Source: Eledone cirrhosa | Lineage: Eukaryota | Length of the DNA: 64,000 nt | NCBI GenBank assembly: GCA_964016885.1 | Contig: OZ024762.1 | Coordinates: 18,104,001-18,168,000, forward strand | Reading direction: 5' to 3' | Part shown: one piece after another, positions 780 through 60,700 of the stretch | Numbering within the stretch: the stretch's first letter is position 1 | How the letters are laid out: each line of letters begins with the position of its first letter | The notes under the pieces: generated by a model | The model's database searches: none | Seen by the model: only the letters and a program-made list of their open reading frames with translations | What the model was told of the DNA's origin: nothing | Program-made: the position numbers and the translations under genes

Positions 780-3700
780 GTAAGAAAATTAATTAAATTT
801 ACTTTTTATTTTCATGTTTTTGTTTTTTTTAACTATTTAATGCTATACTATATTCTCTCTCTCTCTCTCTCTCTCTCTCTCTATATATATATATATATAT
901 ATATATATATATATATATATATAACGAAGGAAGTGTGGTAAGGAACCAGATGGACCATAACACACCAGAGTACTCAATACTTAGGGTAGTTGAGTCGGTA
1001 ATAGGAAAAAGTTTAACCCCGACGGCAGAGCTCAAGCCGTTTCGACAGTTTGTGCTCTGCCGTCGGGGTTAAACTTTTTCCTATATATATGTGTGTGTGT
1101 GAGTGTGTATAATATATATATATATATATATATATATATATATATATATATATATATATTTAACACTTCACTGCTCGCAATTGTTTTCTAAGCTTCATAT
1201 CATGTCTCCCTATTTTATCTTCAACAGTACGTCCTCATGACTGAATCTTAACCATCTACTATGTCAGGGTATGTCATGCATCATCTTATTTTATCTGATG
1301 AGGACGTACTGTTGAAGATAGCTCAGTACCTCTGAAATATGTATCATAAAATATACTTGATCACACGAATGTCTATTTTTGTTAATATTTTGAATTAATA
1401 TATATATACATAATATATATATATACACATAATATATATATGTATATATAGATAATATATATATTTTCTATTTCCAATCAGGTATTAATGAATGTGCTAT
1501 GTATCCCGATGCCTGTCAAAACGGGGCCTGTGAAGATTTGGATATGGGTTTTCGTTGTATCTGTGATCCTGGATACAAAATGGATGACACTGGCAAAGCA
1601 TGTGTAGGTCAGTACTCCAAGTTTCAACCATTACAATACTATAACTAACACAAACTTATTTTGTAGCAAAACGAACCCTACACGTTCCTTTTATTCTTTC
1701 GTTGGTTTCAACTCCTGGATTATGGCCATGATGGGGCACCATCTTGGTGGTCTAGCTCTATATCTAATCTAAAATCTGTCTCGAACTTGGAGGTTGACCA
1801 GGCCGGTACTTATCCTGGTTTCGTGGCATTGAGCAACCGAGAGTAGAGGATTCATCTCTTGACAGGACACCAGTCGAAAAAGGTTGCCCATGCTTGGTCT
1901 AATCTATCATACTCAGCCCCCTTTTTTGCAACAAGAGGTTCAACAATATTTAAAGGGGTTGCCAAATTAATTTTTTTTTCCTTCTATAAATAATATGCAA
2001 AGGCCCTATTAAATGTTCAACCAGGGGCCACATTCTAGCTTGATCTGTCCCAGTATTTAGGAACGGGGGACTGTGGCAGTGTTGCTGTTGTTAGTGTTGT
2101 TATTGTCAACAATCTGCCCCACCAGTTGAGTTCTTGCTAGTGTTGTTGTTGTTGTTGTTGTTGTTAGCGTTGTTGTTGTTTTTGTTGTTGCTAGTGTTGG
2201 TGTTGTTGTTGCTGTTGTTGTTCTTCTTCTTGTTGTTAGCGTTGTTGTTGTTGCTAGTGTTGTGTTGTTGTTGTTGTTGTAGTTAGCGTTGTTGTTGTTG
2301 TTGTTGTTGCTAGTGTTGTTGTTGCTATTGCTAGTGTTGCTAGTGTTGTTGTTGTTGTTAGCGTTGTTGTTGTTTTTGTTGTTACTAGTGTTGGTGTTGT
2401 TGTTGTTGTTATTGTTGTTGTTGTTAGCGTTGTTGTTGTTGTTGCTAGTGTTGTTGTTGCTGTTGCTAGTGTTGCTAATGTTGTTGTTGTTATTGTTGCT
2501 AAAGTTGTTGTTATTGTTGAAAAGTTGTTGTTGTTATTGTTGCTAAAGTTGTTGTTTGATTGGCTATTCCAAATACTTCTGTTCAATATATAAATTTATG
2601 CATTTTATTGATTCTTTTCTTCTTGCTCTTCTGTTTCCCACAGATATCAATGAATGCTCTCAAAACAAATATATCTGTGATGGGGGAAAATGTCGCAATT
2701 CCCCCGGTAGTTACACATGTATGTGCCCCACAGGATTTGTTCAGAGTAAAACTACTAAAATGTGTGAAGGTAACAACTTTATATTATATTAGGTTAACTT
2801 TGCCTTTTGTCCTTACAGGGTCGATAAAATAAAGTACCAGTAATGCACTGGGATAATTGCTGGCTTTGTGCCAAACGTAGAAACTATTACATGGAGAGGG
2901 GGATTGGCAGTATCAGTAGAAGGTCGGACGCCATGCTTTGCAGCATAGAGTTACGGCCCTTTACGATTTGAGTTCAAATCCTGCCGAGGTTAACTTTGCC
3001 TTTCGTCCTTACGGGATCGATAAAATAAAGTACCAGTAATACACTGGGATAATTGCTGGCCTTGTGCCAAAAGTAGAAACATTTATATCATATTAGATCT
3101 ATAGCCAGGGCAGTGGATTAGCAGTATCGGTAGAGTGCCGCATACAAACACACACACGCACGCACGCACACAAGAACACACACACTTACACAGATGTATA
3201 TACATGCAAGCACACACATACAAACTCACACATCCAAACACACACACACACACTCATACTCACATATATATTTAGACATACATGTACAAGCTCACATGAA
3301 AACTCACATACATACATACATACATACATACATGCATACATGCTTACACCAACACATATAAAGACACACATACAAGTACACACATACAAACTCACACATA
3401 CACAAATATTTTACATGAAATGTTCATCAGCCTTAATTGAATTAGATTAAAATTTGAACCTCATTTACATAAATTTGCATTTAATTACATGCTAGGATTG
3501 TTACTTTTGTTGTCAACATCGTCTAAGCTAATAAATTATTGCTGTCTGTTTATTAGATATTAACGAATGTGAAAGCTTCAACACATACTGTGTCGGTGGT
3601 AGATGTGTAAATTTGGCTGGAAGCTTCCGTTGTGAATGTACCGTTCCTGGAACAGTCTTGGACTCAAGTGCTCGAGTTTGCATTGGTAAGTTAACATAAG

Positions 3701-57700: not shown

Positions 57701-60700
57701 TGTGTCAAAAAGAAACCCACAAAGAGTGGGATTAAGACTTCAAGGGTGTTCTCAAAACCTGTTATAATTCTTTTTTTTTTTTTTGTCCATCTTGAATTTA
57801 TTTTCAGACATTGATGAGTGTCTGTCAGAATCCAATATATGTTACCAAGGAGATTGTATCAATACTGATGGATCATTTATTTGTAACTGCCCATCTGGTT
57901 TTGTCCTTTCAAGCGACAAGAGGAAATGTGTTGGTAAGATAATGTTGTTTTGGTTATATATTTAATTTTCTTCTTCTAATTTGCCCTCTTATTCCTGTCA
58001 GAAGCAACCATCTTGAACTCATCCAGTTTGATTCCCAATTTGAGACCAGACAAGCTCATGGATGTTATCCAACCATCATGCTTGGGATCAACCCCTGGGT
58101 CCCCTGTTGGTTGGTTTTGCCCATAAAATCTGTCCAGCAGATTCTTTCCTGAGACATCTAACCACATGTCATTAATAACAGAGCTGTAATCTCTCAATTT
58201 GGAGAAGTAACAGCTCTACCTGGAATGACTCTCTGATCTCCAAGCTATGCACTCTATTGAGTAACGTTTCTCCAAAGACCCTTCAGAGGAACTCCATTTT
58301 GGTGGCTTGTATTTGCGATCGTAATCCTCAAGATTCGTCCTCTCAAAGAAGCCTGTGCAGTGTACTCTGCATGTAAATGGAGTATCTATATGTATTTTTG
58401 AATGTCTACTTTAATTAAATTTCATTAATTTTTACTTTGTGGCTGAGACTGCCTGATGAGGTCATAGCCATTCAATGGCTATCATCGAAATATATATAGC
58501 AGTAAATAAAGGATTAGGAGTTCATGCAATTGACTTATGTTTCGTCACTATATATATATATATATATATATATATATATATATATATATATATATAAGGA
58601 ATTTTAAGCATATAACCCAGGGATACAATCCTTTCACCTCTCTTAACAGATATGAGAAAGGCCTTCTGTTACCGATCCTTCGAAAATGGCCAATGTTTGA
58701 ATCCCTCTTTTATGAACATGACACGCCAACAGTGTTGCTGCAGTTCAAGTGTAGCATGGGGTGGTGCTGTCTGCAGTGTGTGTCCCATCAAGGGTACAGG
58801 TAAGCAGACCTCTTTTCTTGTTCTTCATCATTGTCATCGTCCTCCTCATCACCGTCATCAAAATTGTCATCATCATCATCATCAAGATCGTCATCGTCAT
58901 CGTCATCGTCATCACCATCGTCATCACCATCACCATCAATGTCATCATCATCATTTTACGTCCACTTTTCCCTGCTTGCAGGGGTGGGGCGGGAACTGAT
59001 TCTGGCTTGGTTTCTACAGTTGGATGCCCTTCCTAACACCAACCTCATTTACAGTGAGTGCTGGGTGCTTTTTTGCCGTGGCACCTCCACGACCACTTTG
59101 CAGTGGAATGATAGGGACCCCAGTCCCTATCATCTCATTTCTACAGCTGAGTAAACTGGAGCAATGTGAAATAAAGTGTCTTGCTCAAGGAAACAACACA
59201 TCACCCGGTCTGAGAATTGAACTCACAACCTTTCGAAAATAATTTAGCTGGCAATCAATGTTTATCATTGATTGACTAACAGTTAAAAATATAAAGCTAA
59301 TTTATCAAAGTTCTTTCGTCACACATTTCTGTGACATCTTCAGTGATTATTACTGTTTCCTACTGTTGTGTGTGTGCGCAAAACTTTGCAAAACAAATAC
59401 ATTTTATATATATATATATATTTGTTGTTTTTTTATTTATTTCTCTCTCTCTAGACGCCTACGATAAATTGTGTCCCTACCGGGGTCGTATTGAAGATCC
59501 AAATGGAAACAAGAAAGGTAAGAATAACAACTTTGTCTTGAACCATTTCAACACACACAGATGCTCACGCACACACATGCATACTCACACTCACACACAC
59601 ATGCTCATACATACATTCTCACATACACACAAATGCTCACACAGGCAAACATGCACTCACATACTCCCACACACATGCACTCAAATATATACACATACAC
59701 TCACAAATACACCCATGCACTTACACACACACATGTGCGTGTGTGTGTATATATATATATATAAACAAGGAAAAACAGACATAGTAAACACTCACATACC
59801 TATAAACAAGCAAACATACACACACATATTCATATACAAACAAGTAAACACATACACACATACCCACACCAGTTAAGTATTAGGGTCGATATCGCCAGTT
59901 TTTTCTCCATCCCTCCTCCTGCCAAAATTGCCGGCCTTGTGACTATAGTAGGAAGAACTTCTAACCCCTAACAGGACCCCCTCCCAAATTACTGGCCTTG
60001 TGGCTATAGTAGGAAGAACTAACCCCTAACAGGACCCCCTCCCAAATTACTGGCCTTGTGGCTATAGTAGGAAGAACTAACCCCTAACAGGACCCCCTCC
60101 CAAATTGCTGGCCTTGTGGCTATAGTAGGAAGAACTAACCCCTAACAGGACCCCCTCCCAAATTACTGGCCTTGTGGCTATAGTAGGAAGAACTAACCCC
60201 TAACAGGACCCCCTCCCAAATTGCTGGCCTTGTGGCTATAGTAGGAAGAACTAACCCCTAACAGGACCCCCTCCCAAATTACTGGCCTTGTGGCTATAGT
60301 AGGAAGAACTTCTAACCCCTAACAGGAACCCCTCCCAAATTGCTGGCCTTGTGGCTATAGTAGGAAGAACTAACCCCTAACAGGACCCCCTCCCAAATTG
60401 TGCAATAGTAGAGAGACGTTTCCCCTAGTCTAATGTTAGTCTGTTTTAAGCCAAAAGGCTCATTAGGCAGGGGCTTATCCTGGTTTAGTGGTGTTAAGCA
60501 ACTGAGACTTCAACACTTCCCCCTGGACAGGATGCCAGTCCATCACAAGGTTAAGCTCCCAGCTATTGCTGCTGGTTCTCGTTCTCAGCTAAGTATACTG
60601 GAGCAACGTGAAATGTAGTGTTTTGCTCAAGAACACAACATGCAACCCAGCCCAGGAATCAAACCCACGACATTATGATCGTAAGTCCCACACCTTTACC

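Follow-up and report, generated by a model that had tools for sequence, protein, structure and literature searches.

A family-level non-Watson-Crick pair in the lengthened stem II of predicted retrotransposon hammerheads of Eledone cirrhosa

The stretch of 64,000 nucleotides (nt) of Eledone cirrhosa DNA analysed here (contig OZ024762.1 of assembly GCA_964016885.1, positions 18,104,001 to 18,168,000), hereafter the window, contains on its plus strand a series of exons encoding calcium-binding EGF (EGF_CA) domains, dispersed over positions 6486-58999 (e.g. 25640-26047 and 53793-54539), and one TB-like exon, which suggests, at the level of sequence, that the host locus is a fibrillin-like gene. 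Five intact hammerhead motifs are found in sense orientation between the EGF_CA-coding exons and would therefore lie in introns of this gene. Of four contig-type RNA runs, three gave no match; one covered the site and gave no differences or ends among the matches listed. Hammerheads of Penelope elements are thought to be without the tertiary contacts to which natural hammerheads owe their speed. A preliminary description of the window had pointed out that the fourth base pair of stem II (i.e. pair 10.4·11.4) is mismatched in these motifs. On further analysis this is a real, family-level structural feature of known retrotransposon hammerheads, and probably a selected one, in RNAs whose cleavage is predicted.

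A descriptor scan of both strands of the window recovered six intact type I motifs, five sense and one antisense, all of which possess the hallmark elements of the type (the CUGANGA core, GAAA and UH); in two further copies G12 has changed to A. The sense motifs share the core, GAAA, a stem I of 4-8 base pairs (bp) and an 8-nt stem III that is palindromic or nearly so. Three of them are of the short type. The motif at 1287-1353, with an 8-bp stem I, consists of a core at 1295-1301, stem II at 1302-1333, GAAA at 1334-1337 and stem III at 1337-1344, with C1345 as the cleavage-site base; its pair 4 is C1305·C1330 and its pair 1 is G·U. At 36388-36452 (stem II 36403-36432, cleavage-site base A36444) pair 4 is C36406·C36429 and pair 1 is A-U, and at 58448-58503 (stem II 58460-58486, cleavage-site base A58498) pair 4 is C58463·C58483 and pair 1 is the canonical G10.1-C11.1. 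The other two sense motifs have longer stem II arms. The one at 20537-20648 (cleavage-site base A20644) has an 85-nt arm (20548-20632), A20551·C20629 at pair 4 and U·G at pair 1, and belongs to a family in which all seven copies have A·C at pair 4. The one at 45330-45425 (cleavage-site base A45418) has a 63-nt arm (45344-45406), U45347·C45403 at pair 4 and C·A at pair 1; the pattern of its family has 2,060 matches genome-wide. The same family provides the antisense motif (24704-24799, core 24792, cleavage-site base A24711), which the preliminary description had overlooked and in which pair 4 is U24782·C24726 and pairs 1 and 3 are mismatched as well. (In what follows the window families are named by the start of stem II in the sense copies, or of the antisense copy.) All six intact motifs thus combine a mismatch at pair 4 with a 3' C, and in the sense copies pairing resumes at pair 5, as had been noted at the outset.

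Two decayed copies on the minus strand qualify this picture. At 21199-21269 (G12 changed to A at 21218) the reported U·U at pair 4 is indeed present (U21251·U21222), but its intact relatives have C·U in 16 of 16 cases; the U·U is likely a decay product of this family state, judging from these relatives, and the 3' C, constant in the six intact window copies, is not invariant beyond them. The second copy (16575-16708) is truncated at its 5' end, with its core cut and G12 changed to A. It belongs to a family with a stem of about 60 nt (cluster C35) and is paired at position 4 (A16703-U16650), where its family consensus is G·U. The statement that pair 4 is always mismatched therefore holds for the intact window copies but not for this one, nor for other families in which G·U is found. 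The proposed 3' C becomes, across families, a 3' pyrimidine, since sister families have G·U, U·U, C·U and in a few cases a Watson-Crick pair. All seven of the window copies checked have a (TA)8 tract at a distance of 80-271 nt, (TA)n, into which Hydra-clade elements insert, being abundant in the window.

Genome-wide counts were made in the 3.0-Gb genome with patterns that leave stem II pairing unconstrained and with a reversed-pattern control. The short-type pattern yielded 56,286 matches (control 50), 48,847 of which have C·C at pair 4 (control 0). A 5' base other than C was found in 3,009 matches, which among the matches listed appear to be scattered point mutants of the same families, and 4,430 (by subtraction) have a 5' C and a 3' base other than C. 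G-C at pair 4, counted with the additional requirement of a pyrimidine at 11.1, occurs in 348 copies dispersed over subfamilies, and 21 of 24 sampled G-C copies have as their closest neighbour a copy with another state. Because C·C dominates throughout the genome and G-C is confined to these scattered copies, the mismatch is the family consensus and not the outcome of decay; in none of the families from which the preliminary description drew is position 4 paired in the consensus. The commonest change in decayed short-type copies, among the matches listed, is C-to-T. Two long-arm patterns gave 22,027 matches (control 399) and 26,524 matches (control 2,560), respectively. Purines at 11.4 occur in 1,310 of the 22,027, compared with 5,865 for 11.5; among the matches listed, many of the 1,310 represent upstream-core matches to a family with a 20-nt stem and C-G at pair 4. 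A hammerhead-like pattern with arms of 14-49 nt has 168,612 matches (control 27,660), and the excess of hammerhead-like matches over controls for all arm classes is roughly 180,000, some of them counted twice.

For a family-level survey about 1 Mb of loci was collected, mostly from contig C1 and chosen by pattern rather than at random, which contained 319 unique motifs (7 in reversed sequence). The 42 motifs that had been fetched for being non-C were set aside, and clustering resulted in 96 clusters; 70 were retained once singletons with low scores and three clusters lacking credible stems had been removed. In the 24 short-type clusters pair 4 is mismatched without exception (16 C·C, 3 C·U and 5 single-copy others), and pairs 2, 3, 6 and 7 are paired in 23-24 of the 24 with two to four pair types each, although these latter figures are inflated, as detection ignored pairs 1 and 4 and demanded pairing elsewhere. 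The 28 long-type clusters have at pair 4 G·U (9), U·C (4), U·U (4), C·C (3), G-C (3), A·C (2), C·U (2) and A-U (1), i.e. a non-Watson-Crick pair in 24 of 28 (G·U in 9, a mismatch in 15), where the wobble occurs nine times as G·U and never as U·G. Position 11.4 is a pyrimidine in 28 of 28, against 5-23 of 28 at the other seven pairs. The remaining hammerhead clusters are Watson-Crick at pair 4 in 17 of 18 cases. Pair 1 is often mismatched too, G-C at 10.1-11.1 being present in 5 of the 24 short and 3 of the 28 long clusters.

The surrounding pairs covary, as had been suggested. The 20 short-type copies picked by hand all lack pairing at position 4; pairs 2, 3, 5, 6 and 7 are formed in 18-19 of them and vary on either side. 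The alignment of these copies displays two-sided change at 13 of 16 pairs, supporting three stems that close the core with the open ends in stem I, and its covariation score (0.645) exceeds that of shuffled alignments (0.285; none of 500 shuffles scored as high), a control that is inflated by the relatedness of the copies. Over the 12 multi-copy short subfamilies parsimony assigns no change to C10.4, and one clear change (to U) plus one 1:1 tie to 11.4, against 2-4 changes per side in the flanking pairs 2, 3 and 5-8. Pair 4 thus behaves as the selected feature that it had been taken for. When pair 4 was repaired in silico in the five sense copies, the folding energy was lowered by 4-7 kcal/mol and the probability of pairs 2-3 rose from 0.15-0.95 to about 1.0. 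The predicted self-duplex of stem III amounts to -2.2 to -6.4 kcal/mol.

The likely carriers of these motifs can be recognised from open reading frames (ORFs) at related loci. At locus L061 two motifs in direct repeat, 3.7 kb apart, flank a frameshifted reverse transcriptase (RT)-endonuclease frame that contains RWR (one residue off RWK), DKT, YRDD, CxCX5C and a C-terminal match to the Pfam GIY-YIG family (E=1.5e-4, 22.4 bits, just under the cut-off of 22.6); DKT and CxCX5C are also present in L259. These correspond to the marks of the Hydra clade of Penelope-like elements given in section 11 of Craig et al. 2021 (PMC8557442), namely DKT for DKG, RWK, the CxCX5C linker, plus GIY-YIG as the C-terminal domain. 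Homologous Hydra-type ORFs lie upstream of motifs of the 1302 family (L172/L134), the 36403 family (L063, L064 and L276), the 58460 family (L120/L282), the 20548 family (L174/L175) and the 21199 family (L170), as well as of G·U families. The window copies themselves gave no ORF match. For the 45344/24792 family no ORF was found upstream of 16 sampled copies, and most small families are likewise without one; the clade placement of the 45344 family is by motif likeness, its arm aligning with those of G·U and U·U families. On this sequence evidence the motifs would be type I hammerheads from the terminal repeats of Hydra-clade Penelope-like retrotransposons, with an ORF link for four of the five sense families. 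They are therefore not the unrelated sequences that they had been thought to be.

This relatedness is further resolved by a tree built on 29 partial ORFs from the collected loci, 11 of which have no hammerhead assigned to them (the uncertain labels of L274 and L167 were not used). The 1302, 36403 and 21199 families and a 47-nt C·U family form one clade (ultrafast bootstrap, UFBoot, 100), the 58460 family is placed deeper (UFBoot 66) and the A·C family of 20548 is nested with three G·U families (UFBoot 95). Within the clade with C·C or C·U at pair 4 the ORFs are separated by roughly 0.5 substitutions per site per branch. The states of pair 4 track the element lineages, and a non-Watson-Crick pair with a 3' pyrimidine recurs in three or more separate groups. 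One of the Hydra-type families with G·U (L235-L264) is very young: 150 of 150 scored RT matches are at 98-100% identity, many 785-amino-acid (aa) frames are open and 40,292 candidates were counted on first look. In the inverted twin copies L055/L056, L111/L112 and L134/L172 the same rare substitutions are present in both arms, which suggests one copying template or conversion between the arms.

The published Hydra-clade hammerheads (PMC8557442, File S2) are the closest comparison. They are alike in the element clade assigned, type I fold and a palindromic stem III of 8-10 nt, and, in our reading of the 26 published rows, 15 have a pyrimidine·pyrimidine pair 1. The absence of G10.1-C11.1, which the preliminary description had noted for several copies, is thus real (it is present in one of the five sense copies, 58460) but not new, and U·U has been noted at this pair in nature (PMC3088659). 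They differ in having stems II of 3-8 bp with loops of 3-10 nt, against arms of 20-116 nt here, and in that their pair 4 is formed in 25 of 26 rows (the stem of the remaining row has 3 bp), whereas here it is mostly non-Watson-Crick. The min-HHR hammerheads of Cervera and de la Pena 2014 (PMC4209133) share with the present motifs their position in Penelope terminal repeats, a long helix II, the lack of a loop-loop contact, a palindromic helix III that suggests cleavage as a dimer and the occurrence of many divergent families per genome; they differ in that G10.1-C11.1 is conserved and separated from A9 by a bulged base, and in having little or no helix III. By eye, 2 of 56 representative min-HHR rows have a fourth-pair mismatch (PMC4209133). 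A bulged-base (9.1) register was considered as a cause of the apparent mismatch and rejected, as the shift breaks stem II and is best for 2 of 267 motifs. The dimerising variants of Lunse, Weinberg and Breaker with a short stem III (as cited in PMC6765202) are likewise type I, palindromic in stem III and associated with Penelope. The extended hammerheads (Schistosoma Sm-alpha for type I, sTRSV for type III) share the catalytic core, and stems I and II are expected to lie side by side; they differ by a 4-bp stem II in which the last A of the loop pairs with the unpaired U beside 1.6, whereas here stem II continues through pairs 5-8 and this A/U contact pair is absent.

We found no paper that describes the feature at pair 4, and the sections available of PMC6765202, PMC6155905, PMC7936874 and bioRxiv 10.64898/2026.07.22.740005 contain no mention of it; the alignments of Lunse et al. 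lie outside the comparison, so that priority is uncertain. Scans of metagenome and viral contigs (239 loci among the matches listed) gave four loose, unconvincing folds, which is no evidence either way on other taxa. Relative to the parts of the literature compared, what appears new is the conserved non-Watson-Crick pair 4 in hammerheads with a long stem II; Penelope-borne hammerheads, the long helix II and the loss of G10.1-C11.1 were already known. The mismatches at pairs 1 and 4, together with arms of up to 116 nt, may explain an escape from descriptor and Rfam searches, in which case hammerheads would be heavily undercounted in animal genomes. An Rfam search of the window at the gathering score had 0 matches, hence no hammerhead family, and at E<=10 a hammerhead family was absent from the best 150 of 186 matches.

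That pair 4 is under purifying selection during element replication seems to us quite probable. As to its role, the reading that we tentatively prefer, while holding it to be a little less than an even matter, is that 10.4·11.4 is a selected, wobble-type pair with a 3' pyrimidine that helps the lengthened stem II to pack on stem I. The pair states share the 3' pyrimidine and the non-Watson-Crick form, A·C is isosteric to G·U (PMC3708525) and C·C, whose pKa is near 7, is able to wobble as U·U does (PMC12714568), from which we infer wobble geometry and a wobble-type docking surface. G·U is also described as shifting its U out of the minor groove and so permitting helix packing (PMC3708525), and the nesting of A·C among G·U families and the presence of U·C and U·U in a group homologous with G·U count for the same geometry. 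In the mechanism that we envisage, the lengthened stem II would dock against stem I through pair 10.4·11.4, which would replace the missing loop-loop contact, and by analogy with other Penelope hammerheads cleavage might take place in a dimer held by the palindromic stem III. A stem II of more than 4 bp has been reported, as cited in PMC11875169, to be inhibitory in the minimal hammerhead. The packing of the two helices, taken separately, is perhaps slightly less likely than not to be correct. The most far-reaching form of the proposal, an undescribed subtype of some 100,000 copies in which a single polar wobble pair docks an arm of up to 116 nt on stem I in place of the loop-loop contact, possibly tuned by pH through C+·C or A+·C, we consider doubtful; if true, the hammerhead core would have a third natural means of activation. 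A site at which deeply diverged, high-copy families resist Watson-Crick pairing offers a one-nucleotide test for another docking surface or for a protein.

Several observations weigh against selected helix packing. Pair 4 is Watson-Crick in 4 of the 28 long-stem and 17 of the 18 other clusters, some with equally long stems, and the feature is therefore dispensable. One orientation of C·C+ is listed with a twist far from that of G·U (PMC3708525), so that isostericity over all pair-4 states is not established. U11.1 and position 2.3 are likewise unchanged over the 12 subfamilies, in a count that comprises few events. The associations between 10.4 and stem I sites are confounded by lineage, and for 11.4 the best covariation with stem I (12 of 1000 shuffles, among 30 positions) is within the expectation of multiple testing. 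Finally, in several cases of inverted twins each twin has G-C, which may reflect at least one mobilisation of a paired RNA or else homogenisation of the two copies.

The main rival to docking by an RNA surface is that pair 4 is a recognition mark for the RT-endonuclease protein of the element, or for a host protein, which binds stem II and aids cleavage or the choice of the RNA template, a possibility that we rate as real but rather improbable. It would agree with the tracking of lineages by the pair-4 states, with the fact that neither mutual information nor fixed-position complementarity in the clustered motifs revealed a stem I partner of 11.4, and with the frequent use of wobble pairs as protein contacts; moreover, cleavage of a Poseidon-clade Penelope hammerhead required the addition of its ORF protein (PMC11167929). 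Binding of a Hydra-clade protein to stem II is nevertheless putative, and the families differ in the 5' base (C, U, A or G) but retain the 3' pyrimidine, a pattern that suits a shape better than it does a read-out of bases. An attenuating role, in which the mismatch weakens the base of stem II such that isolated copies, many of them in host introns, cleave poorly unless dimerised or chaperoned, would account for the stabilisation upon repair in silico, for the frequent mismatch at pair 1 and for the sense orientation of the five intact motifs in introns of an EGF-repeat gene. We think it unlikely: any mismatch should then do, yet C10.4 is kept in the short subfamilies despite C-to-T being, among the matches listed, the commonest change, and G·U and G-C families exist, one of the G·U families having so many intact 785-aa frames that a true mismatch must be dispensable for recent activity.

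The mismatch could also be a neutral ancestral accident passed on to related families, its repair requiring a rare C-to-G transversion. The relatedness of the families, the informative part of the change count being just 12 multi-copy subfamilies, and the pairing at position 4 in the published Hydra-clade rows all fit such an accident, but an unpaired neutral site is expected to change faster than paired sites and here changes more slowly, and the recurrence of 3'-pyrimidine non-Watson-Crick states in at least three groups is not anticipated by it; we regard it as quite unlikely. The idea with which the preliminary description had started, i.e. that a flipped-out 3' C mimics the tertiary base pair between loop 2 and stem I, draws on the location of pair 4 one step below the known contact position and on the U at 1.7 in 18 of the 24 short-type clusters. 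In the canonical contact, however, the A that ends stem-loop II forms a Hoogsteen pair with an unpaired U next to 1.6, where stem I is not helical (PMC2553840, PMC11875169). Neither the A one step higher nor the unpaired U1.7 is present: 11.4 is a pyrimidine, 1.7 is paired in 17 of the 24 short clusters and is U in 11 of the 28 long ones, and no stem I site covaries with 11.4. Retention of that contact is accordingly very improbable.

Some further variants were met among these elements. Structured stem II insertions of 58-116 nt, predicted to form hairpins or multi-branch folds, occur in many families (window 20548-20632; L205-L234; L083, L091 and L107) and are far beyond the lengths in published Penelope hammerheads. 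In one family (L078:2848 and L108:2096, both on the minus strand, and L230-L233) the core is the U3-A8 variant UUGAAAA, the arm is 103-107 nt long and pair 4 is C·C or C·U. A repeat in L218, L219 and L232 that lies downstream of a Hydra-type ORF (L266) has a palindromic stem III and, in place of the core, a similar UUGAUGA motif, but its stem II pairs poorly; it is possibly a degenerate or rearranged hammerhead. In the window itself, two 3' fragments of a family with a 26-nt stem lie in inverted orientation at positions 15571-15690, and a hammerhead-like remnant at 54795-54850 on the plus strand consists of a CUGAGGA...GAAACAGUUGU motif without stem I.

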